Part shown: one piece after another, positions 2,109 to 53,569 of the stretch
Position numbering within the stretch: the first letter of the stretch is position 1
How the letters are laid out: every line of letters begins with the position of its first letter
DNA from: an uncultured Candidatus Saccharibacteria bacterium
Lineage (GTDB): Bacteria; Patescibacteriota; Doudnabacteria; UBA920
Direction of reading: 5' to 3'
DNA length: 62,372 bases
Assembly (NCBI GenBank): GCA_964484145.1
Contig: CAZAED010000001.1
Span: forward strand, 20,790 to 83,161
The notes under the pieces: model-generated
Database searches by the model: none
What the model saw: the letters and a program-made list of their open reading frames with translations, nothing else
What the model was told of the DNA's origin: nothing
Program-made: the position numbers and the translations under genes

Positions 2109-4721
2109 ATGCCTCTATCTTTCTCAAAATCTACTTCCCCCTGGGGACTTTCCGCCGCCACCGAAGGCCTGTCTTTAATTTTCTCCGGAGAATATAGCTT
2201 AAGTAGTGTAAAAGAATTTGAACAAGATTTTCGCATAAAAAAATACTGGAAAATTGGTTCCTGGCTTTTAATATCTATAGGTATTTTGTGTTTAGTTTTT
2301 CAAATTTGGCTAAGCTACACATCTCAAAATTGGCTCTTTCTATTTAAACACGAAATACTCAATGTACCAATAATATTAAGCCTTTTAACCGGACTCTACT
2401 TATGGGCCCAAAACAAAGAACAAGAAATAGCACAGGCGGCTTTAAATATTTTTTTCTTAAATCAAGATTGGCACGGAAATATAAACAAAAGCCCAAATGA
2501 GGCCGATGTTTTTAAACTACTAAGCCCCTTTGCAAAGGTGGCTTGGCAAGCTGCTGTAAAAACCAGTTTAGAAAAAAACTTTAAAAATCTTTCACTAAAT
2601 GAACTTTTAATTTCTCTTCTTGAAACTTCGGACGTTTCGGAAGCCTGCTTCCGTTTAGGCATAAACTCTGCGGATTTAAAAAAGTTTCTTGTAAACAACC
2701 CCGCGGAACTACCCCCTAATGACGAAATTTTAAAACTTCCCTTCCTAGCTTTCGAAGCCGCTCAATCTCTACATAACAAAAGTGTAGACCCTCTTATGCT
2801 TTTTTGCGCAGCGGTTAAAATGGTCGGAGAAAATTCTTCTTTAGGAAAATTAATGGTAAAACTAGACATTTCGCAAGAAAAACTAGAGACCGTTGCAGCT
2901 TGGATTTTTAATATAAAAATTTTAAGAGATGACCTAAGGCTCTTTAAAAAACTTTCAAGCCTAAAACCTTTAGGCAATATGAACATTGGCCTAACGGCAG
3001 TCCCCACTCCCCACTTAGACCGCTTTACTACAGACCTAAGTCTTAATGCCCGCTTTGGAAGGCTCCCCTTAGCGTTAGGAAGGCATGAAGATTTTGAAGA
3101 AATTTTCCAATTATTTTCTGAAAATAGCCGCCAAATTTTAGTTAAAGGTGAAGTGGGCACCGGCCGCAGCACTCTAATAAACGAGCTAGCTTTTAAAATG
3201 GCAACCGAACAAGTGCCAAAAACCCTGCAAGACAAAAGGCTTCTAAAACTAGAAATTTCCGGCATTTTGGGCGCGCAAGGTAAAAGCGAAAATTCTTTAG
3301 AAAGCGCGCTAAACGAAGCAGCCAATTCTGGCAACATAGTTTTAGTAATAGAAGACATAGAACAGCTGGCAAAAGCCCGCTCTGCTTCCGGACTTAACCT
3401 GTTAGAAATTTTAGTTAATTTTTTACAAAACACTTCCTTGCAGGTTATTGCCACCTGCGACCTTAATGCTTACGTTGATTTTCTCCAAAAAACCCCGAAC
3501 TTTACTCAAGTCTTTGCGGAATACGAACTAAAACAACTTTCTTCCCAACAAATTACGCTAGCGACTTGCATTAAAGCTAGCCTACTTGAACATAAACATA
3601 ATTGCCTATTTTTATTCCAAAGCATAGAACGTAGTATAGAACTTACCAACGAACTAGTTTTTGGCCTAGGTCAGCCGCAAAAAGCTATACAACTTTTAAG
3701 CGAAACCGCGGCAAAAATAAAATCCACATCAAATGAACCCAGAATTATAGACCAAAGCGATATTGAAAATAGCATTAGCCAAAAAACCCACATCCCAGAA
3801 GGCGCGGTTACCGGCAAAGAAGCGGACAAACTCCTAAACTTAGAAAAGGTTTTATCGGAAAGTATAGTCGGCCAAAAACCTGCAATAAAGGCTGTATGTG
3901 AAGCTTTGCGGCGTACCCGCTCGGGACTTACGTCGGGCACTCGCCCACTTGCCTCGTTTTTGTTTTTAGGCCCCACCGGCGTGGGTAAAACAGAAATTGC
4001 TAAAACTTTGGCCAAAGAGTACTTCGGGAAAGAAGAATTCCTCTTACGTTTAGATATGTCGGAATTCTCAGGCTTTGATGGAATGATAAAGCTCCTTGGC
4101 CAAAAAGGAGACCTAGCAGACCCTCCGCTTATTAAACATTTAAAAAATTACCCTTACTGTCTTTTACTGTTAGATGAATTTGAAAAAGCCGCGCCGCAAA
4201 TTCATAATTTGTTTTTGCAAGTCTTAGACGACGGAAGGCTTACTACTTCAAGGGGCGAACTACTAGACATGAGCCATGCCTTAATTATTGCCACCTCAAA
4301 TGCCGGCACCAAAGACATACAGGAAGGCATAAAAGCCGGCGAAACTTTAGACAAAATTAAATCTAGGTTGTTTGAATCTGTTTTACTTAAAATTTTTCCG
4401 CCTGAACTTTTAAACCGATTTGATTCTGCTATTGTTTTTAGCCCGCTCACACCTTCAGACGTTGCTCAAATTGTAGGCCTGCAGCTTAAAATTTTGCAAA
4501 AAAAATTAACCGGCAAAGGCATTACCCTGGCTTTCTCAAATAATGTTGTAGAGCATATTGCCAAAAACGCTTTTGACCCAAGCATGGGCGGCCGCCCGGT
4601 AAGGCGCTATATTCAAGACCATATAGAAAGCTTTATTGCTGAACTTTTGCTTTCAAAAAAAATCGGCCGCGGCTTTAAAGGCCTGGTCGATATAAAAAAT
4701 AACGAGCTGATTATTTCTTAA
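2109..4721 (+). CDS. Clp/Hsp100-family AAA+ ATPase: N-terminal TM helices, Clp_N-like repeats, degenerate NBD1, intact NBD2
   Basis: NBD2 has GPTGVGKTEIAKTLA, LLLLDEFEKA, ATSNAG and GGRPVRRYI. NBD1 P-loop is GEVGTGRST (Lys replaced by Arg, 3147-3173). Hydrophobic helices WLLISIGILCLVFQIWL and VPIILSLLTGLYLWA precede the Clp_N-like repeats. Confidence 0.8.
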   Translation: MPLSFSKSTSPWGLSAATEGLSLIFSGEYSLSSVKEFEQDFRIKKYWKIGSWLLISIGILCLVFQIWLSYTSQNWLFLFKHEILNVPIILSLLTGLYLWAQNKEQEIAQAALNIFFLNQDWHGNINKSPNEADVFKLLSPFAKVAWQAAVKTSLEKNFKNLSLNELLISLLETSDVSEACFRLGINSADLKKFLVNNPAELPPNDEILKLPFLAFEAAQSLHNKSVDPLMLFCAAVKMVGENSSLGKLMVKLDISQEKLETVAAWIFNIKILRDDLRLFKKLSSLKPLGNMNIGLTAVPTPHLDRFTTDLSLNARFGRLPLALGRHEDFEEIFQLFSENSRQILVKGEVGTGRSTLINELAFKMATEQVPKTLQDKRLLKLEISGILGAQGKSENSLESALNEAANSGNIVLVIEDIEQLAKARSASGLNLLEILVNFLQNTSLQVIATCDLNAYVDFLQKTPNFTQVFAEYELKQLSSQQITLATCIKASLLEHKHNCLFLFQSIERSIELTNELVFGLGQPQKAIQLLSETAAKIKSTSNEPRIIDQSDIENSISQKTHIPEGAVTGKEADKLLNLEKVLSESIVGQKPAIKAVCEALRRTRSGLTSGTRPLASFLFLGPTGVGKTEIAKTLAKEYFGKEEFLLRLDMSEFSGFDGMIKLLGQKGDLADPPLIKHLKNYPYCLLLLDEFEKAAPQIHNLFLQVLDDGRLTTSRGELLDMSHALIIATSNAGTKDIQEGIKAGETLDKIKSRLFESVLLKIFPPELLNRFDSAIVFSPLTPSDVAQIVGLQLKILQKKLTGKGITLAFSNNVVEHIAKNAFDPSMGGRPVRRYIQDHIESFIAELLLSKKIGRGFKGLVDIKNNELIIS

Positions 4722-5748
4722 GCCTATTTAACCACCGTAAAAATTTATAAACCTTATACCACGCCGGACGTATTATTACATCATACGCTCCGGCGTATTG
4801 TTTTATAGAGCTTTCCACTGTTGTAAAACCAAGTTTAAAACGCACAAACCCCGGCGTGTCCCCGCTTGATGTTTCTATGCCCCAAAAATCATAGTTACTT
4901 AATCCCAAATTCTTGGCATCTAACATGGCGCGGTAATGCAAAAGGTACGGTGCCATAATATTTTTATGTTCATCCGAAGAACCGCCAAATAAGTAGGTGC
5001 GAGTTTTTCCGTAGTCTATTATTATTGCACTGGCTAGAAGTTGTTTGTTGTAAAGCGCCTTGTATACATGCAGTTTTAAATCGCCCTGCGGATTTTGAAT
5101 TGCAAAGTAACTAATTAATTTTTCAAAATAGTCCGGGTTTTGCGCTTTAAAGCCCTGCCTCTGGGAAGTTTTCGCAATTAATTCTACCGCCTCTTTAGCC
5201 AAAAGCCCTTTGCCGTTTACTAAATGAAATTCGTCTTTAATTTCTACGCCATGCTTTTGTGCTAAGCGAATATTGTAACGCGTTTTATGATGCATCTCGG
5301 TCAAAAGATCTTCTTCACTTTTCGCCAAATCTATAATTAGAGTCCTGCCTGGTTGTATGTTCTTGGTTTTAGTAAGTAGTTGGTAGTTAGTAGTTGGTAG
5401 CAAGAAAGAATTTTTCGGTTCAATACGTATAAAAACCGCCTCTCCGAATTTCCTTTCCAACTCTTGCGTTAACAATCTTAAATCTTCAATCTTAAATCTT
5501 ACATCTATTACTGGTCCATACGGACAATATAAATAATACTTCCCCATAGGCAAACTCGTCTTAATAAGATGTAAGGATCCTATGCGCTGCCCCCCAATAT
5601 CCAATATCCAATATCGTAATATCTTTCTCCCAAGAGTCTCCTGCCAACTTCCCCAGTCATAACCTTGCAAAAAAGAACCCGTCTCATTTTCAATAACGAA
5701 ACGGTTATAAATATCTTTTTCTGATTGTTTTACTTCTACTAATTGCAT
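4711..5748 (-). CDS. FemAB/FemX-family peptidoglycan aminoacyltransferase
   Basis: SFLQGYDWGSWQ near the N-terminus and YLLHYRAMLDAKNLGLSNYDFWGI near the C-terminus are typical FemAB patterns. Convergent 11-nt overlap with the Clp-like gene. Confidence 0.8.
   Translation of the reverse strand: MQLVEVKQSEKDIYNRFVIENETGSFLQGYDWGSWQETLGRKILRYWILDIGGQRIGSLHLIKTSLPMGKYYLYCPYGPVIDVRFKIEDLRLLTQELERKFGEAVFIRIEPKNSFLLPTTNYQLLTKTKNIQPGRTLIIDLAKSEEDLLTEMHHKTRYNIRLAQKHGVEIKDEFHLVNGKGLLAKEAVELIAKTSQRQGFKAQNPDYFEKLISYFAIQNPQGDLKLHVYKALYNKQLLASAIIIDYGKTRTYLFGGSSDEHKNIMAPYLLHYRAMLDAKNLGLSNYDFWGIETSSGDTPGFVRFKLGFTTVESSIKQYAGAYDVIIRPAWYKVYKFLRWLNRLKK
5371..5404. repeat. Degenerate heptamer array (agtagtt/ggtagtt) inside the FemX-like CDS
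   Basis: agtaagtagttggtagttagtagttggtagcaag. It is the reverse complement of the ctaccaa array at 53570-53604 and is translated as LLPTTNYQLLTKTK. Confidence 0.85.
5474..5508. repeat. Degenerate heptamer array (aatctta x5) inside the FemX-like CDS
   Basis: aatctta aatcttc aatctta aatctta catctat. Same family as 14834-14861, 17501-17535 and 37975-38002. Confidence 0.9.
5594..5622. repeat. Heptamer array (ccaatat x3 plus cgtaatat) inside the FemX-like CDS
   Basis: ccaatatccaatatccaatatcgtaatat. Same family as 19027-19054 and 39655-39689. Confidence 0.9.
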
Positions 5749-5757
5749 AAATATAAA

Positions 5758-5838
5758 ATTGACAAGATTGACACCATTTAAAAGATTTCTATAACCCCAA
5801 TCTTGTCATTCTTGCTCATTCATTTAAATCTTGTCAAT
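5758..5838. repeat. Inverted-repeat element of the 'cttgtcat' family between ruvA and the FemX-like start
   Basis: attgacaagatt (5758-5769) is the exact reverse complement of aatcttgtcaat (5827-5838). The interior holds cttgtcattcttgctcattcatttaaatctt. Confidence 0.85.
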
Positions 5839-5842
5839 CGAT

Positions 5843-7427: not shown

Positions 7428-9474
7428 GTTCCGGCCTGCTGGCGACCAACCCAAAGCAATTGAGGGTCTTTTAAAGTCGCTTAAAGCCAAAAACCGCTTT
7501 CAAACTCTACTCGGAGTTACTGGCAGCGGCAAGACTTTTACTATGGCCAATGTTATAGAGCGTATACAAAAACCGACATTAATCATCAGCCACAACAAAA
7601 CTTTAGCTGCCCAGCTTGCCGCAGAATTTCAAGAATTTTTTCCGGACAACGCGGTTCACTACTTTGTAAGTTACTACGACTACTACCAACCGGAAGCCTA
7701 CATCCCCCGCTCTGACACTTATATTGAGAAGGATACTCAAATAAATGAAGAGATCGATCGTTTAAGAAACGCTGCCACCCAAAGCCTGCTTTCGCGCAAA
7801 GATGTCCTAATTGTGGCGTCTGTTTCCTGTATTTACGGCCTTGGTGACCCGGCTAATTATTTAGACTTGGCAATGGACTTTAAAAAAGGAGGGAATTATA
7901 AACGGGATAAGCTACTTAGAAGACTAACAGATTTACAATACCACCGAAACGACACAGAACTAGTACGCGGCACTTACAGAGTGCAGGGCGACGTTGTAGA
8001 AATTATACTTTCTTCTGAAGACACTATTATTCGAATGGATTTTTTTGGGGACACATTAGAAAAAATAGAAAGGCTGGACGCGATTTCAGGCCACAAAATT
8101 GAGCAGATGGATGAATTCACAATTTTTCCAGCCAAACATTTTGTTACGCCCGAAGAAAAATTAAAAGACGCAACAGAAAACATTCGTAAAGAAATGTTAG
8201 ACCGAGTTAAATTTTTTAAGTCCCAAAACAAACTTATAGAAGCTCAAAGAATAGAACAACGTACCAACTTTGACCTAGAAATGTTAAGCAACACAGGCTT
8301 TGTTAGCGGTATTGAAAACTACTCCAGGCAAATAGAAGGCAGAGAACCAGGTTCTGCGCCGTCTACTTTAATTGATTACTTCCCTGACGACTTTTTGTTA
8401 TTCGTTGATGAATCCCACCAAACTATACCCCAAATTGGCGCTATGTACGAAGGAGACAAGTCTAGAAAAACTAACTTGGTTGACTACGGCTTTAGGCTTC
8501 CTTCTGCCTTAGATAACCGCCCACTTAAATTTGATGAGTTCGAAAAGAAAATAAACCAAGCTGTGTTTGTCTCCGCAACACCGGCGCCTTTTGAAATACT
8601 AGCCAGTCTTAATCAGGCAGTTCCAAAAAAATCAGAGGTCTTTGAAAGTAAGAATTCGGATCATTCGGATACATTCGTAAGTTCGGATCGGAACACTATT
8701 GTTGAACAACTTATTCGCCCAACAGGCCTACTCGACCCTACCATAGAAATAAAGCCCATAAAAAACCAGGTTGATGATTTAATAGAGCGCATACATGAAC
8801 GTATAAAAAAACATCAACGCGTACTGGTTGCCACGCTAACTAAGCGTATGGCCGAGGAGCTAACCGAGTACTTAAAAGAAGACGGGGTAAAAGTACAGTA
8901 TTTGCACAGCGATGTAGATACATTTGAACGACTTGAAATACTGCGCGACCTTAGACTTGGCGTTTTTGACGTCTTAGTTGGCATTAACTTACTTAGAGAA
9001 GGCCTAGACTTACCGGAAGTTTCTTTAGTTGCAATACTTGATGCGGACAAAGAAGGCTTTTTGCGTTCTGAAACTTTCTTTATGCAAATGATGGGCCGTG
9101 CTGCCAGACACTTAGAAGGCCACGTGGTTATGTATGCCGACAGAATAACAGGTAGTATGCAAAGAGGCATAGACGAAACAACTCGCAGAAGAAAAATCCA
9201 GGAAGCTTACAACAAAAAACATGGCATAACTCCCAAAGGCATACAAAAAGCCATAGCCGACTCGCGTATGGCCGGCAGTAAGGTAGATATTTTTGACGAA
9301 GCTAACGAAAAGCGCGACCCAAGCCGTATGGACAAAGACGAACTAAAATTCTACCTCCACGAACTAGAAGAACAAATGGACTTTGCCGCAAAGAATTTGG
9401 AGTTCGAGGTCGCCGCCAAACTTAGAGACCGCATTGAAGAAATTAAAACTTTGAAAAAATTAAACAAGAAGTAA
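7402..9474 (+). CDS. uvrB: Excinuclease ABC subunit B
   Basis: GDQPKAI, GVTGSGKTFTMA, VSYYDYYQPEAY, RPTGLLDP, helicase motifs and a C-terminal UVR domain (EFEVAAKLRDRIEEIK). Confidence 0.95.
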   Translation: MIKFVLKSKFRPAGDQPKAIEGLLKSLKAKNRFQTLLGVTGSGKTFTMANVIERIQKPTLIISHNKTLAAQLAAEFQEFFPDNAVHYFVSYYDYYQPEAYIPRSDTYIEKDTQINEEIDRLRNAATQSLLSRKDVLIVASVSCIYGLGDPANYLDLAMDFKKGGNYKRDKLLRRLTDLQYHRNDTELVRGTYRVQGDVVEIILSSEDTIIRMDFFGDTLEKIERLDAISGHKIEQMDEFTIFPAKHFVTPEEKLKDATENIRKEMLDRVKFFKSQNKLIEAQRIEQRTNFDLEMLSNTGFVSGIENYSRQIEGREPGSAPSTLIDYFPDDFLLFVDESHQTIPQIGAMYEGDKSRKTNLVDYGFRLPSALDNRPLKFDEFEKKINQAVFVSATPAPFEILASLNQAVPKKSEVFESKNSDHSDTFVSSDRNTIVEQLIRPTGLLDPTIEIKPIKNQVDDLIERIHERIKKHQRVLVATLTKRMAEELTEYLKEDGVKVQYLHSDVDTFERLEILRDLRLGVFDVLVGINLLREGLDLPEVSLVAILDADKEGFLRSETFFMQMMGRAARHLEGHVVMYADRITGSMQRGIDETTRRRKIQEAYNKKHGITPKGIQKAIADSRMAGSKVDIFDEANEKRDPSRMDKDELKFYLHELEEQMDFAAKNLEFEVAAKLRDRIEEIKTLKKLNKK
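8654..8692. repeat. Word array (ttcgga/ttcgta) inside a lineage-specific uvrB insertion
   Basis: attcgga tcattcgga tacattcgta agttcgga tcgga, translated as NSDHSDTFVSSDR. Confidence 0.85.
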
Positions 9475-9481
9475 TCTGGCA

Positions 9482-10203
9482 GATGACGGTCATTCTCCCT
9501 CAAGGAGAATGACCGTCATCCTCCTTATCAATCAGCAAATGCTCTAAGTCCTTTCTTTCACGAATTTTGATATAACTTTCTTCCACAAAACGTTCATACT
9601 CCTGAGCGTTTTTAAATTGACCCAAAATATTCTCTTTGCTGCATAAGGTTCCCGCTCTCTTACCAATAAAATCTAAATAACTGCTATATGGCCATCCGTT
9701 CAAGCCTATTACTAAACCAGCCACTTTCGGATTTTGGTGAATGTAAGCTGAGAGCCATAACAAATAAGAATCTGAATCTACTTTAACCGCACGAAATTTA
9801 TGTTCAAACAAAGCACCCACCCTATCATGCGTCTTATTAAAATATTTTGAATATCCGACACAAACTTTTTTTAATAATTCTGTTAGCGGTAGCTGGCTAT
9901 TTTGCTTTATTAGCAAATGAAAATGATTAGGCATTAAGCAATAACAAATCATACTAAAAGCACCGTCCGGCAACGCTTGCCTGCGGAAACGTGCAGGCTT
10001 ACTTTGATTATACCGCCTAATTAATTCAGGAAATAAATTTTCCCTTAAACGAAATAAAAAAACCTTATAATCTTCCTCATCTAAAAAAATGTCTTGCTTG
10101 CCATTACCCCGGTTATAAATATGATAATAACCGTCCTGTCCAAATTGTTTATAATCACGATTATTCATAAAACCCCCATTAGGGAGAATGACGGTCATTC
10201 TCC
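9482..10203 (-). mobile_element. REPtron-like unit: Y1 (RayT/IS200-like) transposase bracketed by matching palindromes
   Basis: Perfect 17-bp-stem hairpin at 9482-9520 and a 10-bp-arm palindrome at 10183-10203. The 16-mer atgacggtcattctcc occurs at both ends in direct orientation (9484-9498, 10188-10203). Confidence 0.65.
9500..10198 (-). CDS. REP-associated tyrosine transposase (RayT) / IS200-like Y1 transposase
   Basis: YHIYNRGN, the HUH motif in LMPNHFHLLIK, and the catalytic-Tyr region LSAYIHQNP. An alternative ATG at 10168 (MNNRDYKQ) lies just past the hairpin. Confidence 0.8.
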   Translation of the reverse strand: MTVILPNGGFMNNRDYKQFGQDGYYHIYNRGNGKQDIFLDEEDYKVFLFRLRENLFPELIRRYNQSKPARFRRQALPDGAFSMICYCLMPNHFHLLIKQNSQLPLTELLKKVCVGYSKYFNKTHDRVGALFEHKFRAVKVDSDSYLLWLSAYIHQNPKVAGLVIGLNGWPYSSYLDFIGKRAGTLCSKENILGQFKNAQEYERFVEESYIKIRERKDLEHLLIDKEDDGHSP

Positions 10204-10208
10204 TGTTT

Positions 10209-10952
10209 CTAAATTACTTTTTCATAACTCTCTGCCGCCTGCCAAGCAAACTCATATAAAGTTTTCATAGACTGGTATATAGCCTGGCTAGTAATTTGTA
10301 CAGCCGAAACTTGGGGCTGGAAATAAAAAAATACCAGCTTGCCGTCGTATAAACAATTGTCTGTTAAAAAACCCTCGCTTCCCGAAACAAACCTTTGCTG
10401 AAAATTTTCTCCGTGCTTCATAGTTTTTACATATTCAAAATCTGCCGGGCTCCTAGTTAAGAGCTCCCTAACTTGAACAGAGCCTGTCATTGCCTGTTCA
10501 TTTAGTTTTTTTGGAAAATCGGGATAAATGGACAGCACGTCTTTTATGGTTGAAAACCACGAAACATTTTTTGCCTTTAAAATTTTTTCATATGTTTCTC
10601 TAACCGCATCTTTTCCTTCAAACAGTAAAACCTGGGGTTTGTCTATTTTTGCATTATAAAGTGCGAGTAAATTAGGCATAAACCTTTTTACCATTTCCTG
10701 TTTTTTATGTAAGTCCCCCACTATTTTTTCTGGGCTCTCTGCCGTGTAGAGAGCTTTTTTTGCGCGCGGGATAATGCTTACCATTCCTTTTGCTTGCAAG
10801 CTGTCGAGTATTAAATACGTTGTAGGTCTCTTAAGACCTGCCTTACTAGCAATTAACTGCACACTAGCAGTCCCCAACTCCAAAAGCCCCAAGTAAACCT
10901 GGGCTTCCTTTTCATCTAGACCAGCTGTTTTTAATACATCTAAAATTTCCAT
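10209..10952 (-). CDS. TrmB-family HTH transcriptional regulator (paralogue 2 of 3)
   Basis: MEILDVLKTAGLDEKEAQVYLGLLELGTASVQLIASKAGLKRPTTYLILDSLQAKGMV. Confidence 0.8.
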   Translation of the reverse strand: MEILDVLKTAGLDEKEAQVYLGLLELGTASVQLIASKAGLKRPTTYLILDSLQAKGMVSIIPRAKKALYTAESPEKIVGDLHKKQEMVKRFMPNLLALYNAKIDKPQVLLFEGKDAVRETYEKILKAKNVSWFSTIKDVLSIYPDFPKKLNEQAMTGSVQVRELLTRSPADFEYVKTMKHGENFQQRFVSGSEGFLTDNCLYDGKLVFFYFQPQVSAVQITSQAIYQSMKTLYEFAWQAAESYEKVI

Positions 10953-11017
10953 AAGTAGATATTCATTATCTCTCTCTCCAATTCTTGGAGAGAGACTAAG
11001 AGAGTGGTTAAGTCTTT

Positions 11018-11047
11018 GTCATCCCGGCCTTTAGAGCCGGGATCCAG
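11018..11047 (+). repeat. REP-like GC hairpin with gggatccag tail (copy 1)
   Basis: gtcatCCCGGCctttagaGCCGGGatccag. A related copy lies at 58126-58173. Confidence 0.7.
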
Positions 11048-11171
11048 TTTTATTAGTTATTTACATTATACTCCCTTTTCTTATTTTTGTCAATTTTTCT
11101 GACAAATAATTAATATCTAACAATTAAGGCTATAAATAGGGCTTTTTAAAATATTTAATTAGTCATTATTA

Positions 11172-11200
11172 TTGACTATATGTTAAATTTATGACATAAT
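11172..11200 (+). promoter_or_regulatory. Sigma70-type promoter of the ABC importer operon
   Basis: TTGACT (11172-11177), 17-nt spacer, CATAAT (11195-11200). Implies a leader of about 137 nt. Confidence 0.5.
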
Positions 11201-11343
11201 TACAGGTTAAAACAACAACTCCTTTGAATCTTTAAGGGAAGCGCGATGCATAACGCTTCCCCCTAAGAATCGAATAATCAAACCCTGTATTGTAGCGTGC
11301 CGATTTATCGGCGTGACTTACGAACTTGGTTACAAGGAGTTTT

Positions 11344-12363
11344 ATGAACAAGAAAATTTTAAGCCTAATAGTAATTATTGCGGCTGTCGCTGCAACTTTT
11401 GCTTGGTCTAAACAAATTCACAAAAGTAACCCTCAAGTTTTAGGTATTCAAAAAACCCAAAGTAAATTACGTTTAGGCGTAAACACCTGGGTAGGCTATG
11501 GACCATTTTGGCTAGCCCAAGACAAAGGCTTTTTTAAGGACGAAGGCATGGAGGCAGAAATTTCAGTTATTGAAGACAGCGCGCAAAGAAAAGCTGCTGT
11601 TTTAAATAAAAATATAGACGCGCTTGGCGACACTGTTGACCTGCTTGTTTTAGCGCGTGACCAAAAAATTCCTTCCGTAGCTGTTATGCAAATAGACATA
11701 AGTAATGGCGCAGACGGAATTTTAGCCGGCCCTGGAATTAATACCATAGAAGACTTAAAAGGAAAAAAAATCGCAGTTCAAAAAAACTTTGTCAGCGAAT
11801 CTATGCTCTACTATTTATTGAAAGAACATGGAATGTCTCCGAAAGACGTACAAGTTATAGACACCGAAGCGGGAGCTGCTGGCGCAGCATTCGTAGCCGG
11901 ACAAGTAGATGTAGCTGTTACTTTCGAACCTTGGATGAGCAAAGCCAAAGAAAGAAGCGGGGGCAAACTATTAGCTTCCAGTAAAGACGCAAATAGCGCC
12001 ATTGCAGATATTTTAACTGTCCACGAAGACTACTTAAAAGATGACCCAGATGCAGTTAAAAAATTTATGCGTGCTTGGTTTAAGGCGTTAGACTATTACA
12101 AACAAAACCCAAAAGAAGCAAGTGAGCTTATGGGCAAACACTACAATGTATCGGGCCCAGAATTTTCAGAATTGTTAAATGGTGTTGTTTGGAATGATTA
12201 TAAAGAAAATGCCGCATATTTTGGCAACGAAAAAAGTCCCGGAAAAATATTTAATATTAGCCAAACTTTTGGTCAAATATTTTTAGAGACCGGGCAAATA
12301 AAGTCCATACCCAATATGAACGGCGCAATTGACGGCAAATTAATTAATTCATTATATGAATAA
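11344..12363 (+). CDS. ABC transporter substrate-binding protein, NMT1/THI5-like (NitT/TauT family)
   Basis: Signal/anchor MNKKILSLIVIIAAVAATFAWS. LRLGVNTWVGYGPFWLA and VAVTFEPW are typical of the SsuA/TauA/ThiY fold. aaggag lies 5 nt before the ATG at 11344. Confidence 0.8.
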   Translation: MNKKILSLIVIIAAVAATFAWSKQIHKSNPQVLGIQKTQSKLRLGVNTWVGYGPFWLAQDKGFFKDEGMEAEISVIEDSAQRKAAVLNKNIDALGDTVDLLVLARDQKIPSVAVMQIDISNGADGILAGPGINTIEDLKGKKIAVQKNFVSESMLYYLLKEHGMSPKDVQVIDTEAGAAGAAFVAGQVDVAVTFEPWMSKAKERSGGKLLASSKDANSAIADILTVHEDYLKDDPDAVKKFMRAWFKALDYYKQNPKEASELMGKHYNVSGPEFSELLNGVVWNDYKENAAYFGNEKSPGKIFNISQTFGQIFLETGQIKSIPNMNGAIDGKLINSLYE

Positions 12364-13123
12364 AAAATATATTTTTTTTATTCTTTCGCTCGCATTGCCC
12401 TTACTTGTATGGCACATTGCAGCAAGTAGGCTACTCCAAAGCTACTTTTTGCCAAAACCCCTTGAGGTGGCAAAAGCATTATACATACTATTTAAGGACT
12501 TTAATTTCTTAGGCGACATTAAAGTTAGCTTAATCCGCATAATAGTGGGCTTTGCAGCAGCAAGTTTTCTTGCCATACCCGTAGGAATAGCAATGGGTAT
12601 AAATAAAAGCCTGGAAAACTTATTCGAACCGTTCATAGACTTTATTCGCTACACCCCCATACCGGCCTTTATACCTTTATTTATTTTATGGTTTGGGATT
12701 GGAGAAACCGAAAAATTTGTGGTAATTTTTGCAGGTGTCTTTTTCCAGCTTTCTTTAATGGTAATGAACTCTATTTCAAGAATACCAAAAGAATTACTGG
12801 ATGCAGGCCAGACACTGGGGGCAAACAAATTGCAAATTATCTGGCGTGTAATTATACCTTGGACTAAACCACTAATACTAGACGACCTAAGAATTAATTT
12901 AGGGTGGGCTTGGTCTAGCTTAATGCTCGCAGAAGTAGTTGGTTCTACTGCTGGCATTGGTTATGTAATTATTCAGTCACAAAGGCTACTTAAGACCCCG
13001 GAAGTAATGGCAGCTATTGTAACCGTTGGAATTTTTGGCTTAGTCAGTGACCTTATTTTTAAACAGCTCTATAAATACTATTTTCCATGGGCAAATAAAT
13101 TAGACTCTTATGCTAAAACTTAA
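12356..13123 (+). CDS. ABC transporter permease (NitT/TauT family)
   Basis: Multi-TM protein with an EAA-like loop (LLDAGQTLGANKLQIIWRVIIP). 8-nt overlap with the binding-protein gene. Confidence 0.85.
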   Translation: MNKKYIFFILSLALPLLVWHIAASRLLQSYFLPKPLEVAKALYILFKDFNFLGDIKVSLIRIIVGFAAASFLAIPVGIAMGINKSLENLFEPFIDFIRYTPIPAFIPLFILWFGIGETEKFVVIFAGVFFQLSLMVMNSISRIPKELLDAGQTLGANKLQIIWRVIIPWTKPLILDDLRINLGWAWSSLMLAEVVGSTAGIGYVIIQSQRLLKTPEVMAAIVTVGIFGLVSDLIFKQLYKYYFPWANKLDSYAKT

Positions 13124-13856
13124 TAAACTTTCAAAAAAATATTTTGTGCAGCCAAACCCGATTACGGTGTTTGAGGGTTTAAATATGAGCATAAAGCCCG
13201 GAGAGTTCGTAGCGCTAGTTGGCCCAAGCGGTTGCGGTAAATCCACCTTGCTTAAAATAATTAGCGGGCTTAGCCAGCAAACCAGCGGCATTATTTTAAC
13301 TAACGGACATTCTATAGAAGGCACTCATAAAAGCCGTGGTATGGTATTTCAAAATGGCGCGCTTTTTCCCTGGCTCAAAGTCAAAGACAACATTGCCTTT
13401 GGTTTAAATCTTAGCCAAACAACTAAAGTTGAAAAAACTAAAGTCATAGACCATTATTTAAACATTACTGGCCTTAAAGATTTTGCAAATTACTACCCCA
13501 AGAATCTTTCCGGCGGTATGCAGCAGCGCGTAGCTATAGCCAGGACGCTCGCGAACAATCCGGAAATACTTCTTATGGACGAACCTTTTGGCGCCTTAGA
13601 CAACCAAACCAGAGGCAAGATGCAAGAATTTTTAACTGAACTTTGGGAAAAAGAAAACAAAACTATTTTATTTGTTACGCACGATGTAGCCGAAGCGGTA
13701 TTTTTAGCCGACACTGTTTATGCACTTAGTCCAAGACCAATGAAAGTTAAAAAAGTATTTAAAATTCCCTTCCCCCGCCCCCGCAGACACGAACTAAAAA
13801 AATCTCAGGAATTTTTTAAATTTAAACTTGATGTTGAAAAAGAACTGGAAAACTAA
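13110..13856 (+). CDS. ABC transporter ATP-binding protein
   Basis: Walker A GPSGCGKST, signature LSGGMQQRVAIA, Walker B LLMDEPFGALD. Confidence 0.9.
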   Translation: MLKLNKLSKKYFVQPNPITVFEGLNMSIKPGEFVALVGPSGCGKSTLLKIISGLSQQTSGIILTNGHSIEGTHKSRGMVFQNGALFPWLKVKDNIAFGLNLSQTTKVEKTKVIDHYLNITGLKDFANYYPKNLSGGMQQRVAIARTLANNPEILLMDEPFGALDNQTRGKMQEFLTELWEKENKTILFVTHDVAEAVFLADTVYALSPRPMKVKKVFKIPFPRPRRHELKKSQEFFKFKLDVEKELEN

Positions 13857-13883
13857 AAAACTTGCTTGCACCACATTTAACTA

Positions 13884-14052: not shown

Positions 14053-14691
14053 ATGAAAGCGATTGCAATTATCGCCATGATGATAGGTGTACTTGGCGCC
14101 CAAGATTCACCAGAAGCCGAAGGACTTTTGGAAGCCACGGCTTCCAAGGATTTCAATTACGGCTTAGTATTTGTACCGGTCAAATCGGGTTTCGCATTCG
14201 ATACCCAGTTTTACTGGACACCTAATGCGGGATCTCAAGTTTTACTGGGCGGCGCCTACGTATGGAAACCCAAAAAACTGGGCGGCCTTAAACTAATACC
14301 GGGAATCTATTACGTAACTGAAGGATGCGAGCATGAAGCTCGCCCAGCCGGCTGTCATGACGTAGCTCTTGGACTCGGCTGGGAATGGCGCAACGTGCGT
14401 TGGGGTAGCCGCGGTTTTGTGGCTCAAACCCTCCGTAAAACCGAACGCCGCTTCGGTTTCGCCGATCCAGTTCAGGCTTACCGCCGCCTCTTTGACGGCA
14501 AAGTGGAGTTCGGTTTCGCCTACACAGGCGAATCTGCCGAGCATCATCTTTTCGGTAAAGGCGGCCTTTCTGTCAGGCGTTACTTCGGTCAGGAAAAAGA
14601 AGAAGGGATTGGACGCAACTATGTTGAGTTCACATTCCTAACGGGCCACAAAGGTCCGTCATACCGCACAACGCTAGGCCGAAGCTTTTGA
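14053..14691 (+). CDS. GC-rich secreted protein, possibly beta-barrel/OMP-like (C-terminal Phe)
   Basis: RBS aaggagaggg plus ATG. Signal peptide MKAIAIIAMMIGVLGAQD. Alternating-hydrophobic segments; the protein ends ...TTLGRSF. Codon usage (ggc, gcc, cgc, ttc) differs from neighbours. Confidence 0.6.
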   Translation: MKAIAIIAMMIGVLGAQDSPEAEGLLEATASKDFNYGLVFVPVKSGFAFDTQFYWTPNAGSQVLLGGAYVWKPKKLGGLKLIPGIYYVTEGCEHEARPAGCHDVALGLGWEWRNVRWGSRGFVAQTLRKTERRFGFADPVQAYRRLFDGKVEFGFAYTGESAEHHLFGKGGLSVRRYFGQEKEEGIGRNYVEFTFLTGHKGPSYRTTLGRSF

Positions 14692-14833
14692 CAGCGTCAT
14701 CATATCAACACGGTGGCGAGCCGGATTACACCCCGCGCTCGCCTACCACACTTGTTTTTTTTATATAAATCTGGTAAAATCACTTTACCTTTAAGTCAAT
14801 CAGGTGTCGCTGGTTGATGCGGGGACAATTTTA

Positions 14834-14861
14834 AATCTTAAATCATATATCTTAAATTTTT
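14834..14861 (+). repeat. Heptamer array (aatctta family) abutting the rpsT start
   Basis: aatctta aatcata tatctta aattttt, then ct plus the ATG at 14864. Confidence 0.85.
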
Positions 14862-17500: not shown

Positions 17501-17535
17501 AATCTTACATCTTATATCCTAAATCTTAAATTCCC
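17501..17535. repeat. Heptamer array (aatctta family) spanning the polA stop and the HD-gene leader
   Basis: aatctta catctta tatccta aatctta aattccc. It supplies the last polA codons (EFKI-stop). Confidence 0.85.
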
Positions 17536-20299
17536 CCATCTCTCCCCAATTATCCCCCACCTTACCCTCAACTTTAATTGGCACACTAAGAGAAATAGCC
17601 TGTTCCATAAGAGGAATTAACTTCTTTGCCCACTCCTCCACCTTGTCCTCCCTAACCTCAAAAACCAATTCGTCGTGCACCTGAAGAAGCATACGAATTT
17701 CAGGGTTCTCTCTTTCTCTAATTCTCTCTTTCTCTAATTCTCTATTTATATTAATCATCGCCACCTTAATTACATCCGCGGCAAGCGACTGAATAGGAAA
17801 ATTCACAGCCGCGCGTTCCGCCGCAGCTCGAATAAAAAACTGCCCTGACTTTATTTCCGGAAACTTTCGCATTCGGCCAAGCTCGTTACGCACAAACCCT
17901 TCCTGATTTACCTGTAACTTTACCTGCTCAATATACTGCTCAACCTGCGGGTAAGCCTCAAAATATTTTCTTATATATTGTTTGGCATCGCCCATTGTCA
18001 TCTCACCTACGCGGGAAGATAGTCCGAACGAAGATACTCCATACAAAATTCCAAAGTTAATGGTCTTAGCATCCCTGCGCATATCTTTTGTAAGAGCTTC
18101 CTGACTAACGCCAAAAATTTCCATAGCGGTTTTGCTGTGAATGTCTTCACCATTTTTAAATACTTCCATCATTTTTTTGTCCTGCGCCAAATGCGCCACA
18201 ATACGAAGTTCTATTTGAGAATAGTCGAGCGACAAAAGCTTATAGCCTTTTTCCGCCACAAAGGCTTTACGTACCTGACTACCAAGGCCTTCTCCACGCA
18301 CGGGTATGTTTTGTAAGTTTGGGTCTATACTAGAAAGCCTACCCGTAGCCGCAATGGTTTGGCTATAACTAGTATGCAGTCTGCCAGTTTTTTTATTTAC
18401 CATTTCTGGTAAGGTTGTTAGGTAAGTGCTATAAAGTTTTGTAACTTCCCTATACTCTAAAATTTTGGGAATTATATCGTGCTGACCTAACATTTTTTCT
18501 AAATTATCGGCCGATGTAGACACGCCTGTTTTAGTGCGCTTGTTGTTAGTAGCTTCCAATTTAAGTTCGTCAAACAAAACTTCTTTCAGCTGCTTAGGTG
18601 AAGCTATATTAAATTCCCTGCCAGCTAATTTGTGAATTTTCTTTTCTAAATCTTTTATGTCTATTTCCGCCTCCCCGGCAAGACGGTTTAAAAGCCTAAC
18701 GTCTAACTTAATGCCGTTTAATTCCACATCTGCCAAAACTTCTACTAAGGGCATTTCTATTTCTTCAAAAACTTTTACTAGTCCGTTCTTTTTAAGTTCA
18801 GGCTCATAAAGTTCTTTAAGCCTTAGCGTCATATCTACATCTTCGCAGCAATACCAAGAAACTTTTTCCGGCGCTACCTTGTCCATGTTAATTTGCTCTT
18901 TGCCTTTGCCTATTAAGTCTGTAATAGGCTGCATTTGGTAGCCAAGTTCGTTAAAAGCAAGCGCGTCTAGTCCATGTTGGCGAGTGCCGGCGTTTAGTAG
19001 GTACGATGCGATCATGGTGTCAAAATTGATACTAGATATTGGATATTGGATATTATGCAAAACCTGAGCGTCGTACTTTATGTTGTGGCCTATTAACTTA
19101 ACTTTACCCGATGTAAGCAGAGTTTTTAGTTCAGACGATGATGTAAAAAGCTTTGTGGGAATATAAAAAGCCTTACCTAGTTTAGCACATAGCCCCACCC
19201 CCACTAATTCCGCGGTAATTGGGTCAAGACCCGTAGTCTCTGTGTCTACGCTTATTTCTGAAGCAGATGATAATTCTTTAATTGCCTCTTCTAATTTCTT
19301 TTCGTCATCGACAAATATATACTCTTGCTTCCCAATAGATTTTATTTCTTGATTCTGATCTGTAATGTCCCCACTTGTCACTTGCAACTTGTCACTTGTA
19401 ACTCCTTTTGGCAATTTTGCCAAAAGGTTCCTAAACTCCAAACTCTGAAACAACTTCACAGTTTGCGACAAGTGTTCTTGGTCTAATTCATACGCTTTAA
19501 TTTCCGGGTCTATGCCTGGGACATTGCAAACTATAGTAGAAAGTTCATACGACATCCGAGCTTCTTTTTCTTGTTCTTTTAAAAGTTCCAAAATACGCGG
19601 ACGAATTTTGGTTCCGGTTTTTCCTGCGTCAATTGCTTTATAAAGTTCATCGAGCGATTTAAAATCTTTTATAAGTTCACTTGCGGTTTTCTCCCCTATA
19701 CCTTTTACGCCCGGAATGTTGTCAGAAGGGTCACCCCTAAGTGCTTTATAGTCCACCATTTGGTCAGGATTTAGTCCAAACCTAGCTCTTACCGCTTTAC
19801 TGTCGTAAATGACCGTGTCTGCCAGTCCTTTGCGCGGAGTGTAAATTTTTACTTTGCCGTTTACTAGCTGCAGGGTGTCCATATCTCCGGTTAAAATAAA
19901 TATCTCAGAATTCTCGTGGCTTTTTTCATGAAAATGTTTAGACAAAGTGCCTAAAACGTCGTCCGCCTCATAGCCTTCCTTTTCGTAAATTGGCACGTTC
20001 ATTGCGCGAAGTACATTTTTAATAACCGGTATTTGGTCGTACAAAGCTTGGTCAGCCTTAACCCTTGTGCCTTTGTACTCTTTATACATATTGTGCCTAA
20101 AAGTCGGCCCGGCTAAGTCAAAAGTCGCAGCTATGTGCGTAGCCTTAATTTCCTTCATAGCCTTTAAAAATATAGTTAAAAACCCAAAAACCGCACCCGT
20201 AGGCCTGCCGTCTTTGGTAGTTAAAGTAGGCAAAGCGTGATAAGCCCTATGTACCAAAGCATTGCCGTCTATAAGTAAATATTTTTCTTTGTTAATCAT
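17519..20299 (-). CDS. polA: DNA polymerase I
   Basis: 5'-nuclease LLIDGNALVHRAYHA, 3'-5' exo region (VDTETTGL) and polymerase motifs DYSQIELR, RRDAKTINFGILYG, QVHDELVFE. The start is the ATG at 20299. Confidence 0.95.
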   Translation of the reverse strand: MINKEKYLLIDGNALVHRAYHALPTLTTKDGRPTGAVFGFLTIFLKAMKEIKATHIAATFDLAGPTFRHNMYKEYKGTRVKADQALYDQIPVIKNVLRAMNVPIYEKEGYEADDVLGTLSKHFHEKSHENSEIFILTGDMDTLQLVNGKVKIYTPRKGLADTVIYDSKAVRARFGLNPDQMVDYKALRGDPSDNIPGVKGIGEKTASELIKDFKSLDELYKAIDAGKTGTKIRPRILELLKEQEKEARMSYELSTIVCNVPGIDPEIKAYELDQEHLSQTVKLFQSLEFRNLLAKLPKGVTSDKLQVTSGDITDQNQEIKSIGKQEYIFVDDEKKLEEAIKELSSASEISVDTETTGLDPITAELVGVGLCAKLGKAFYIPTKLFTSSSELKTLLTSGKVKLIGHNIKYDAQVLHNIQYPISSINFDTMIASYLLNAGTRQHGLDALAFNELGYQMQPITDLIGKGKEQINMDKVAPEKVSWYCCEDVDMTLRLKELYEPELKKNGLVKVFEEIEMPLVEVLADVELNGIKLDVRLLNRLAGEAEIDIKDLEKKIHKLAGREFNIASPKQLKEVLFDELKLEATNNKRTKTGVSTSADNLEKMLGQHDIIPKILEYREVTKLYSTYLTTLPEMVNKKTGRLHTSYSQTIAATGRLSSIDPNLQNIPVRGEGLGSQVRKAFVAEKGYKLLSLDYSQIELRIVAHLAQDKKMMEVFKNGEDIHSKTAMEIFGVSQEALTKDMRRDAKTINFGILYGVSSFGLSSRVGEMTMGDAKQYIRKYFEAYPQVEQYIEQVKLQVNQEGFVRNELGRMRKFPEIKSGQFFIRAAAERAAVNFPIQSLAADVIKVAMININRELEKERIRERENPEIRMLLQVHDELVFEVREDKVEEWAKKLIPLMEQAISLSVPIKVEGKVGDNWGEMGEFKI
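17706..17753. repeat. 16-nt tandem repeat x3 inside polA
   Basis: ttctctctttctctaa x2, then ttctctatttatatta. The 48 nt are in frame and encode INRELEKERIRERE just before motif C. Confidence 0.9.
19027..19054. repeat. Heptamer array (ggatatt; reverse complement of ccaatat) inside polA
   Basis: tgatact agatatt ggatatt ggatatt, translated as HNIQYPISS. Confidence 0.9.
19372..19406. repeat. Heptamer array (cacttgt x5) inside polA
   Basis: cacttgt cacttgc aacttgt cacttgt aactcct, translated as GVTSDKLQVTSG in the inter-domain linker. Confidence 0.9.
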
Positions 20300-20305
20300 G
20301 ATGGC

Positions 20306-20334
20306 ATTATACAATGTTCGGTATTTGGTGTCAT
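20306..20334 (-). promoter_or_regulatory. polA promoter placed for a leaderless mRNA
   Basis: Minus strand: ATGACA (20329-20334), 17-nt spacer, TATAAT (20306-20311), then 6 nt and the ATG at 20299. Confidence 0.55.
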
Positions 20335-20354
20335 TATGCAGCCACCCAACAAAC

Positions 20355-20386
20355 AAAAAACAGCCCCATAATGAGGCTGTTTTTTG
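20355..20386 (-). terminator. Terminator after the giant surface-protein gene
   Basis: cagcc (20361-20365) / ggctg (20375-20379), flanked by A-runs and T-runs. Confidence 0.6.
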
Positions 20387-39646: not shown

Positions 39647-39654
39647 TTTTGTTT

Positions 39655-39689
39655 GAGATATTGGGATATGAGATATTATTGATATTGGG
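39655..39689. repeat. Word array (gatatt/ccaatat family) 8 nt upstream of the pilB ATG
   Basis: gagatattgggatatgagatattattgatattggg. Confidence 0.85.
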
Positions 39690-39818
39690 AAAACCGCCAA
39701 GCAATATCTATAATATCATTCTTAACCTGCAAAAATTTTTGTTTCTTATTCGTCACTAGTTACCCATAACCCGTTACTCATTTAGTATAACATTACTGCT
39801 TAACAAAAAAAAGAGCTT

Positions 39819-43840: not shown

Positions 43841-44053
43841 ATGGACTTTACCACCGTCTCTAACCTAATAATTCAAGCCTTCTACTATATACTAGTAGCC
43901 TTGGTTTTATTTTGCAGTATTTTTGGAGTTTACGCGCTTGTTCGCTATGGCCGCTCCAGAACTTTCGCGTTAGTTCTAAGCCTGTCTTATATTTTCTTTT
44001 TCCTAACTGCCCTGTCTCAGTCCTACTCCGCTTTGCAATCCTTACTGTCCTAA
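43841..44053 (+). CDS. Small two-TM membrane protein
   Basis: MDFTTVSNLIIQAFYYILVALVLFCSIFGVYALV... The track ORF begins at an upstream TTG inside the repeat; I use the first ATG. Confidence 0.5.
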   Translation: MDFTTVSNLIIQAFYYILVALVLFCSIFGVYALVRYGRSRTFALVLSLSYIFFFLTALSQSYSALQSLLS

Positions 44054-44085
44054 CTGATAACTAACAACTATCAACTGATAACTTT
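44051..44085 (+). repeat. Heptamer array (taactga x5) ending 3 nt before the ATG at 44089
   Basis: taactga taactaa caactat caactga taacttt. Confidence 0.9.
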
Positions 44086-53535: not shown

Positions 53536-53569
53536 TATTTAGCCAAACAAACTGAGCAATTCCTGCTGG

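Follow-up and report, generated by a model that had tools for sequence, protein, structure and literature searches.

Heptanucleotide word arrays occupy fixed sites and exchange their words in a predicted femX gene of Candidatus Doudnabacteria

The window analysed here, i.e. a stretch of 62,372 nt (contig CAZAED010000001.1, positions 20,790 to 83,161, of assembly GCA_964484145.1) from an uncultured bacterium placed by GTDB within the Doudnabacteria, contains a predicted femX gene with three in-frame arrays of tandemly repeated 7-nt words. The positions of these arrays are fixed over a large Doudnabacteria clade, and the words that fill them are swapped wholesale by a replacement that is length-neutral, blockwise and far faster than point substitution. 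Selection acts on this process as a filter only, i.e. on the open frame and the loop length, with stop codons mended by single-base changes. The arrays are entities of the DNA, and the process that makes them is genome-wide and lineage-specific, with dispersed word families and nearby arrays that are occasionally reverse complements of each other. In our preferred explanation, to which we give a probability of about 0.55, the femX arrays are the local representatives of 7-9-nt word arrays (~4.4 copies, ~31 nt at period 7) that form a class peculiar to this lineage. They would be made at the DNA level by template switching linked to replication and by ectopic copying of short patches, with selection for an open frame as the filter, and merely tolerated by the host protein.

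The femX product matches the Pfam family PF02388 (E 1.5e-37, 129.8 bits against a cut-off of 24), and its residues 13-331 align end to end with the solved Weissella FemX structures 1ne9/3gkr (E 4e-13). With a family model above threshold and a full-length FemX alignment, the host gene is predicted to be a member of the FemAB/FemX family; the nearest FemX in the protein databases is 69-70 % identical. An AlphaFold2 model with 98 homologues as input reached a mean predicted local distance difference test score (pLDDT) of 91.8. That three arrays lie in frame inside a FemX-like gene had been proposed in a sequence-only reading of the window, and both Tandem Repeats Finder (TRF) and the open reading frame (ORF; Table 1) bear this out; the translations proposed there, i.e. 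RYWILDIGG, DVRFKIEDLRLL and LLPTTNYQLLTKTK, likewise match that of the ORF.

Array 1 was detected by TRF at 5594-5615 (CCAATAT x3.1, 100 % matches), with a degenerate fourth unit at 5616-5622. Its translation, RYWILDIGG, is modelled as strand E42-49 plus a turn, with a block pLDDT of ~97. Array 2 (TRF 5474-5506, AATCTTA x4.7, 88 % matches) translates to DVRFKIEDLRLL, which is predicted to form a surface coil over residues 82-89 and to continue into the first turn of helix H90-100, the pLDDT being 71 over residues 81-90. Array 3 (TRF 5370-5404, period 14, 2.5 copies; period 7 at 5376-5400) encodes LLPTTNYQLLTK, in the model a coil that runs into strand E125-128 with a pLDDT of 72-79. Judging from the model, arrays 2 and 3 sit on loops that are among its least well-defined parts and array 1 on a constrained strand, so that, within the N-terminal subdomain, two of the three would be placed on surface loops that tolerate indels and one on a beta-hairpin. 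No other gene of the genome is as dense in heptamer arrays as femX, which has three within 1038 nt (2.9 per kb).

Table 1. Positions in the window of the femX gene, its arrays and the adjoining spacer (CDS, coding sequence)
Feature	Position	Strand	Description
femX, 345-aa ORF	4711..5748	minus	predicted FemX/FemAB-family aminoacyl-tRNA-dependent peptidoglycan transferase; houses all three arrays
Array 1	5594..5622	minus	sense word GATATTG; 3.1 copies, flanked by degenerate units; CDS nt 134-155
Array 2	5474..5508	minus	sense word AGATTTA, 4.7 copies; CDS nt 243-275
Array 3	5370..5404	minus	sense words CTACCAA / CTACTAA alternating (period 14), 4.4 copies; CDS nt 349-379
ruvA-femX spacer	5749..5842	minus	inverted-orientation 9-nt TTGACAAGA-type words (TRF 5801-5836; inverted repeats)

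The orthologue survey covered the femX loci of 40 related genomes together with 120 homologues at the protein level, all at least 49 % identical (in the following, G### denotes genomes, L### femX-bearing loci and P#### homologous proteins). At the DNA level, heptamer arrays of ~31 nt were found at the CDS positions of arrays 2 and 3, hereafter sites 2 and 3, in orthologues of ~10 genera, with differing words, i.e. AGATTTA, AATTTCC, AATTTCA, AGTGGGC, AGTGACG and AGTAAAA at site 2 and CTACCAA, CACTACC, CACTTTC, TTTCGAA, TTACCCG, CTTACAA and ATCTTTA at site 3. The same pattern is visible in the proteins: runs of at least three identical residues at lag 7 numbered 82 in the 120 proteins (every other lag tried: 1-28), and 73 of the 82 fell into two 10-residue bins, at reference residues 80-89 and 110-119. 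When the three-frame translation of every possible heptamer was fitted to 10-residue windows, a fit of at least 8/10 was obtained in 61 of the 120 proteins at site 2 and in 63 at site 3, compared with none of the 240 control windows (maximum 7). This fit gave at least 29 distinct words at site 2 and at least 41 at site 3. Several peptides that recur among the homologues, i.e. DLRFKIEDLRFL, NFQFPISNFQ, SGQWAVGSGQ and SEKLKVESEK, are translations of a single word, and a word sometimes turns up at the other site, as seen from DLRFKIVDLR at site 3 in P0086 and NFQFPISNFQ at site 3 in P0029.

The imprint of selection is seen in the reading frame. A perfect AGATTTA array in the femX frame has one TAA per three units; in array 2 the third unit is AGATTGA, which converts the would-be TAA codon to GAA. 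At this position, the AGATTTA-type homologues carry E (20), Q (3) or K (2), all of them single first-base changes of TAA. Loop length is also kept, with medians of 28 residues from PYGP to IEP and 17 from IEP to NIQP, whether or not clear arrays are present. Therefore, the arrays overwrite the loop without any net addition. The alternative that array-less orthologues are shorter by 3-8 residues was rejected, as this holds for a few only (L013, L019 and L024) and the medians are equal. Synonymous-codon identity, pooled, was 0.463 in the hot spots and 0.464 in the rest of the gene. At the array 1 strand, 25 of 119 homologues have RYWILD, 45 an RFK-type, 28 an RF(F/W)-type and 8 an RLK-type version. 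RYWILD is the reading of GATATTG and RFKILD that of AGATTTA, the commonest word in the clade; although constrained, the strand is still spelled in the words of the lineage.

To follow the turnover of words, the three array segments were masked and a tree of 119 homologues was built, its median branch support being 88. The word classes NFQF (17 members), TTHY (19 members) and RFKIED (22 members) need 17, 19 and 18 changes on it, respectively, i.e. as many as shuffled labels; of the control columns, 11 out of 11 can be explained by fewer changes than were required in each of 500 shuffles. No phylogenetic signal is seen in word identity. Moreover, mean identity within the hot spots is flat (0.23-0.28) across pairs that are 50-80 % identical elsewhere. 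Even at 85-92 % identity elsewhere, proteins may carry fully different words (P0046/P0071 and P0017/P0019) or differ in word at one site only, i.e. site 3 in P0007/P0008 and site 2 in P0037/P0099. At the DNA level, most 30-nt windows of the genes for P0046 (L071) and P0071 (L072) are 88-100 % identical, as opposed to 7-17 % for the site-2 blocks. At site 2 of these two loci, 48 nt face 48 unrelated nt, in addition to a 39-nt GC-rich palindromic insert in L072, while at site 3 a period-8 AAATCTTT array stands opposite a period-7 ATCTTTC array.

A relative closer to the window than any reference genome, a Logan contig behind L073/L075 that was reached via neighbouring genes, allowed the fate of individual arrays to be read. 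The uvrB, ruvA and clp-like genes are 88-90 % identical at the DNA level, and 13 arrays within 16 kb could be aligned, with flanks of 77-90 % identity. Six of the 13, both coding and non-coding, have given way in place to a hairpin or to repeats of unrelated words, similar in length, i.e. both femX loop arrays and those at 16748, 17499, 17706 and 19372. Five are kept (array 1, uvrB 8654, the rpsT leader, 19035 and 17234), and of the remaining ones that at 7246 shows a one-unit register shift and that at 17030 has decayed. Unit-type changes amount to the register shift of one 9-mer array and a unit difference in one heptamer array. In L073, GGTGACG-type units stand at array 2 and TCACTCG x3.7 at array 3; its array 1 is identical save for a 21-nt GC-rich in-frame insert between units. 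For the in-frame CACTTGT x4.6 array at 19372-19403 (gene 17519-20356), the relative has a non-array sequence of similar length with a 9-bp inverted repeat (gcagaagag/ctcttctgc).

Taken with the orthologue survey, these comparisons bear on the proposal, made in the sequence-only reading, that a sequence-generating or inserting process rather than selection on the protein accounts for the arrays. For a DNA-level generator, arrays 2 and 3 agree with the proposal (unrelated words, no tree signal, block replacement, stop patches); array 1, an ordered beta-strand with RYWILD in 25 of 119 homologues, does not, as it is under strong protein constraint by the refuting condition given in that reading. 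The inserting process is not supported, given the equal loop lengths with and without arrays. The alignment of orthologues suggested as a check likewise showed that the loop segments are hypervariable in word and, with equal loop medians, not insertions.

Of note, GC-rich palindromic mini-elements of 21-41 nt were seen in frame in the middle of arrays in relatives, i.e. in array 1 of L073, array 2 of L072 and a Mur ligase gene. The 21-nt insert in array 1 of L073 (L073:3130-3160) is cctgcctcgccggcagacggg, and an element of ~41 nt, CCGCCTGCAnTCGCCTGAGGCTCnAGCnGATGGCGGGCAGG, occurs twice in the L072 genome, at femX site 2 and in the Mur ligase gene (L072 ~14454-14565). Similar P/A/G/S-rich inserts are found in the homologues P0016, P0034, P0067, P0074 and P0120.

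The arrays in femX are part of a class that pervades the genome of the window, G000 (1.16 Mb, 39 % GC, 57 contigs, 99.6 % complete). After merging of overlapping TRF rows, 296 period-7 and 300 period-9 arrays were counted, compared with 34 and 47, respectively, in a third-order Markov copy of the genome as control. Being head-to-tail short units in excess over composition, the arrays are heptanucleotide simple sequence repeats (SSRs). According to crude ORF calls, by which ~87 % of the genome is coding, 132 of the period-7 arrays lie in coding and 131 in intergenic DNA, and 33 straddle the boundary. The length distribution of these arrays has a sharp peak at 30-34 nt (~4.4 copies), in both compartments alike, with very few above 37 nt, and the median copy number is ~4 at periods 7, 8 and 9 alike. 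Six genes hold at least three arrays, as opposed to 1.6 under random placement. The 155 strong period-7 arrays comprise 53 distinct words; in 131 of them the word has G or C and never both (38 % of random genomic 7-mers), and none of the 155 has a word lacking both G and C. The femX words rank first (AAATCTT, 19 arrays), third (AACTACC, 9) and fifth (AATATCC, 7) among the 53.

The word families of femX also occur outside coding DNA, and the three leader arrays to which the sequence-only reading had pointed were confirmed: CTACCAA x4.6 at 53570-53601, 3 nt ahead of the ATG at 53605; AATCTTA x4.4 at 14827-14857, 6 nt ahead of the rpsT ATG; and a degenerate GATATTG-type array at 39655-39689, ~8 nt upstream of a minus-strand ATG. 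The array 3 word is found with an identical preceding G in the first of these leaders (53569-53601). Array 1 and a locus on another contig of the genome (C4:27536-27563) have a 28-nt near-copy in common, with the same irregular first unit and unrelated flanks, which fits ectopic copying. Apart from this near-copy, the search for exact donors of the window's arrays returned word-level matches only. Many of the leader arrays (14827-14857, 44051-44083, 44675-44705, 53570-53601 and 52767-52806) end 1-10 nt before the ATG, and the gap is short and pyrimidine-rich (ttcct, cctcct, ttttct), without a Shine-Dalgarno-like purine run.

The richness in arrays differs between genomes, and femX follows it. 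In 60-200 kb sampled from each of six relatives, and in G000, strong period-7 arrays per 100 kb numbered 13.4 in G000, 7.0 in G005, 5.5 in G017 and 20.8 in G019, all of which have a femX with arrays, compared with 0 in G012, 0 in G023 and 0.7 in G035, in all three of which femX is without arrays. That the FemX arrays track the genome-wide richness supports a process at the DNA level. The length peak at ~31 nt is also present in G005 and G017, the lengths in G019 being wider (23 to 50 nt). A word dictionary common to all array-rich genomes was considered and rejected, being true for AAGATTT alone, which is common in all five array-rich genomes tested; the other words are genome-specific. Among the genomes tested, the femX words of G005 (CCCACTA) and of G021 (AATTTCC) recur at other loci in their own genome and in G000, and in no other genome. 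Hence, femX draws from the word repertoire of each genome.

Several enzymes were considered as candidates for the making of the arrays. A diversity-generating retroelement or another writer based on reverse transcriptase was rejected, because reverse transcriptase (PF00078) was not found in G000. Three Y1_Tnp-type genes are present in G000, one of them in the window at ~9731-9982; Y1_Tnp is absent from the array-bearing G017 and G021 and present in the array-poor G012 and G035. REP/REPIN sequences with a RAYT were therefore rejected, as repeat abundance is not tied to the Y1 transposase. The PolA 5' nuclease is found in 41 out of 41 genomes, DprA and RecO are nearly universal among the 41, and Ku is absent throughout the family in the same profiling. 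RNase HII (PF01351) is found in most relatives, including the array-rich G001, G003, G005, G019 and G021, and gave no match in G000, G002, G004, G013, G014 and G017. In G008 and G011, the RNase HII match is split by an insert.

Evidence for inverted templating comes from the two loop arrays, which are reverse complements of each other in L002, L003, L006, L009 and L010. RNAduplex energies of site 2 against site 3, calculated for 24 orthologues, were -39.9 kcal/mol in L006, -35.9 in L009, -27.8 in L002, -23.9 in L003 and -23.3 in L010, and cognate pairs were more stable than non-cognate ones (permutation p = 0.0006). Pairings of site 1 with site 3 (p = 0.35) or with site 2 (p = 0.70) gave no signal of complementarity. 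The words inferred for 35 proteins gave a mean complementarity of 4.43/7 vs 3.82, with values of at least 6/7 in 20 % vs 4 %, and none of 20,000 permutations attained the observed mean; in direct orientation, arrays 2 and 3 showed no excess of similarity (p = 0.73). Over the genome, a partner at least 70 % complementary lies within 200 nt of 38 % of the intergenic strong arrays, 6 % of the coding ones and 0.3 % of random 31-mers.

Relative to its close relatives, femX is a recombination mosaic, as seen from sequence identities along the gene. The proteins flanking femX are 96-97 % identical between the window and L073, and femX nt 1-270 are 89-100 % identical at the DNA level. Beyond nt 270, identity falls to 47-91 % (mostly 50-73 %), with 66 % protein identity over residues 151-345. 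Compared with L074, RuvA is 93 % identical and femX nt 496-765 are 89-98 % identical, as opposed to 38-62 % in the first 225 nt. Between L073 and L074 themselves, site 2 agrees (93 % identical) and hardly anything else does. One break zone is at the 5' edge of array 2 and another just past array 3; they adjoin the stretches coding for PYGP and NIQPG, whose nucleotides are better conserved than any others in the gene. This mosaicism explains in part why the words lack phylogenetic signal. It cannot explain the 48-nt replacements in flanks that are 88-100 % identical, nor the replacement of non-coding arrays.

How might such arrays come about? According to our preferred explanation, they would arise and homogenise by strand misalignment and template switching during replication. 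Within an array, direct-repeat slippage may act, whereas inverted-repeat (quasi-palindrome) switching would turn the loop arrays into reverse complements in some orthologues. Arrays may further be overwritten by short ectopic single-stranded patches from other arrays that anneal at microhomologies, in a manner like SPDIR (double illegitimate recombination by short patches), and homologous recombination between diverged alleles would additionally shuffle the array-bearing modules of femX. DprA and a pilB-like gene at 38003-39700 (a label from the first sequence reading) are consistent with DNA uptake, which would supply both single strands and diverged alleles.

Several points weigh against this explanation. 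We infer the mechanism throughout, having directly observed none of its steps, and the exact donors of the replaced blocks were not found. Among the 41 genomes, no candidate gene (reverse transcriptase, Y1 transposase, PolA 5' nuclease, RNase HII, Ku, DprA, RecO) tracks the arrays. Slippage predicts copy-number variants and long-tailed lengths; what is seen is a ceiling at ~4.4-4.9 copies and block replacement. The words with G or C and never both, and a copy number that is constant at periods 7, 8 and 9, are not explained by template switching and could point to function. Arrays 2 and 3 of the window's own femX lack complementarity (-7.5 kcal/mol, which ranks 18th of 24), so that the inverted-templating step is not visible in this gene. 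Finally, the mosaicism of femX blurs the tree tests somewhat.

The ceiling on copies, a copy number independent of the period and the G-or-C words keep alive the reading of the arrays as selected functional nucleic-acid elements, i.e. hairpin arms in mRNA or single-stranded DNA, unstructured spacers or periodic sites for an abundant single-strand-binding protein, although we consider it unlikely. The sites in femX would then be conserved for the sake of the element itself and not through permissive loops. Such a role would agree with the conservation of the sites in 120 homologues despite word turnover, with a narrow size distribution that coding DNA, intergenic DNA and other genera share, with words whose single strand cannot self-pair, with the covariation of word complementarity between arrays 2 and 3 over orthologues, and with the many intergenic arrays that stop 1-10 nt before start codons. 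It is hard to reconcile with the window itself, where the array region shows no fold excess over shuffles (z = +0.59) and the arrays are not complementary, and with complementary arms in which irregular units are not mirrored unit by unit. Besides, with at least 53 words in one genome no sequence-specific reader fits, array-poor relatives retain the same loops without arrays, and half of the arrays are replaced in a close relative, some by non-array sequence. A related proposal, which we would advance only tentatively, is an actively maintained, lineage-specific cassette system in which defined gene and leader slots are repeatedly rewritten with ~4 copies of a 7-9-nt word; in femX, two such slots would flank a conserved core segment, often form hairpin arms and mark the junctions of module exchange. 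That the rewriting is due to a dedicated activity, or to selection for a sequence-independent periodic property of the nucleic acid, seems doubtful as well. Less probable still are small mobile elements or their derivatives (of MITE, REP/REPIN or Rickettsia-palindromic-element type), maybe mobilised by RAYT-like Y1 transposases and inserting at permissive sites, in-frame ones within genes included. Dispersed word families, irregular 28-nt strings common to unrelated flanks, the three Y1_Tnp-type genes of G000 and the truly inserted, GC-rich palindromic elements of 21-41 nt within arrays of relatives would speak for them, but loop lengths are equal, i.e. there is no net insertion, the arrays lack terminal inverted repeats and target duplications, and the distribution of Y1_Tnp does not follow them. 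Furthermore, a conserved core segment lies between arrays 2 and 3, which are thus not one inserted hairpin. An in-frame palindromic insert of this kind was rejected for the window's femX, where the arrays are direct repeats with no net insertion and no inverted partner within the gene.

The remaining two explanations appear very improbable. In one, the periodicity is secondary to peptide selection or to chance, codon choice yielding the 7-nt period, as might be thought from array 1, a well-ordered strand with RYWILD in 25 of 119 homologues, and from recurrent peptides such as DLRFKIEDLRFL, whose hydrophobic pattern is common across word families. However, a 7-nt period covers just 1.5 turns of a 7-residue peptide repeat, the same loop holds unrelated peptides, control windows never reach the 8/10 heptamer fit, non-coding leaders are filled with the same words, and femX is without arrays exactly in the array-poor genomes; the usage of stop-adjacent codons would also make no sense. 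For arrays 2 and 3, this explanation is already contradicted. In the other, which we hardly credit, the arrays are contingency (phase-variation) switches that turn femX off and on, since a step of one 7-nt unit shifts the frame. The unit length is indeed not a multiple of three, and heptanucleotide repeats phase-vary in some pathogens, e.g. at the HMW promoters of H. influenzae (PMC8262952). Yet frames are intact, with no internal stops, in all 40 genomic matches and in all fetched loci, the copy number is low (~4) with a ceiling near 4.4, many housekeeping genes hold the same arrays, and relatives differ by block replacement instead of unit steps; the contingency locus was therefore rejected.

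An excess of heptanucleotide repeats in prokaryotes has been on record since 2007 (Mrazek 2007, as cited by Rehm et al. 2015, PMC4692102) and is poorly studied according to the latter paper, which also hypothesises slippage over a polymerase footprint. The GGGAATC arrays of Xanthomonas and the GGGGA(T/C)T arrays of Nostoc share with ours a lineage-specific excess of 7-nt tandems, and a mostly intergenic occurrence with some inverted pairs may be counted as shared with prokaryotic heptanucleotide SSRs. Our arrays differ in having dozens of words per genome in place of one G-rich consensus, copies capped near 4.4, half of the arrays in genes and translated, and clade-wide fixed positions in an essential enzyme at which the word is swapped.

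In heterocystous cyanobacteria, heptamers of the short tandemly repeated repetitive (STRR) type have been reported within the gene for RNase P RNA (Vioque 1997, title as cited in PMC2858038). The likeness consists in dispersed heptamer families and in the precedent of an array in a variable part of a functional gene. As to the difference, STRR arrays belong to another phylum, have other words and are described chiefly from DNA that is non-coding or forms an RNA helix, as opposed to in-frame arrays in proteins. The host being a Candidatus Doudnabacteria member, according to the source names of its homologues, and not a heterocystous cyanobacterium, membership in STRR was rejected. To our knowledge, position-locked word turnover has not been described for STRR, and words such as AAATCTT, AACAATT and AACTACC differ from what we take to be the STRR consensus. 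Rickettsia palindromic elements are palindromic net insertions of 100-150 nt, in frame in genes. They resemble the present arrays as non-coding-type repeats translated in surface loops of housekeeping proteins, and differ from them in that femX-type arrays are direct arrays of 31 nt without net gain of length.

The tandem repeats of Borgs create amino-acid repeats, all in-ORF units being divisible by three (Schoelmerich et al. 2023, PMC9879509). They are likewise genome-specific, fast-evolving and independently arising, with about half in ORFs, in disordered or surface regions, and with partial repeats flanking (PMC9879509). In contrast to these perfect amino-acid repeats under selection, each copy of the 7-nt unit is read here in another frame, and the imperfections are stop patches; amino-acid repeats of the Borg type were rejected for this reason, 7 nt not being divisible by three. 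With SPDIR (bioRxiv 10.1101/2023.11.22.568220) and with direct-repeat slippage and quasi-palindrome switching (PMC6357072, PMC3820800), the arrays share sharp-edged ectopic blocks of tens of nucleotides and the extension of complementarity between nearby inverted repeats. Unlike these rare laboratory classes of mutation, the outcome would here dominate loop evolution genome-wide; moreover, the SPDIR suppressors DprA and RecO are present in this lineage, and the pairing of donor and recipient is inferred only. A Fem-family precedent for mosaicism is murM of Streptococcus pneumoniae, a FemAB-family gene with mosaic alleles (PMC5487634), i.e. a branching-enzyme gene with patchwork ancestry in a bacterium taking up DNA. 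Its junctions are without tandem arrays, and murM mosaicism is linked to beta-lactam resistance.

No paper on heptamer arrays in genomes of the candidate phyla radiation (CPR) was found in our literature search. The present analysis adds the position-locked, word-variable sites in 120 orthologues, the stop patches and the match between array-rich genomes and femX, as well as the complementarity of the loop arrays, the rate of block replacement compared with close relatives and the mosaicism of femX. Non-triplet repeats are normally kept out of essential genes, as each unit change shifts the frame. Here, a clade of tiny genomes carries heptamer arrays in frame within housekeeping genes, among them that of an essential cell-wall enzyme, where their positions are fixed, and rewrites them faster than the neighbouring sequence mutates. 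It offers a natural system in which to study de novo protein sequence from template switching or short-patch ectopic copying, the extent to which surface loops accept arbitrary sequence, and the preference for 7-9-nt periods in bacteria, a question that dates from the surveys of 2007. On the practical side, the array loops of CPR proteins will be a source of error in alignments, phylogenies and scans for selection, and the arrays are likely zones of assembly or recombination breaks in metagenome-assembled genomes.

Elsewhere in the window, 4.4 kb (9471-13876), including the RAYT-like Y1 transposase gene mentioned above, are missing from L075, which has 237 nt instead, and a search of the window against Rfam gave no family match. 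The ruvA-femX spacer, given in Table 1 as context, is the non-coding side of the same word system; its inverted repeat (5755-5839) has arms at 5758-5769 and 5827-5838 that are complementary at 100 %. Genome-wide, the period-9 arrays are dominated by words (AAGAATGAC, AAAAATGAC, AAGATTGAC) with a TTGAC core, which resembles a -35 box.

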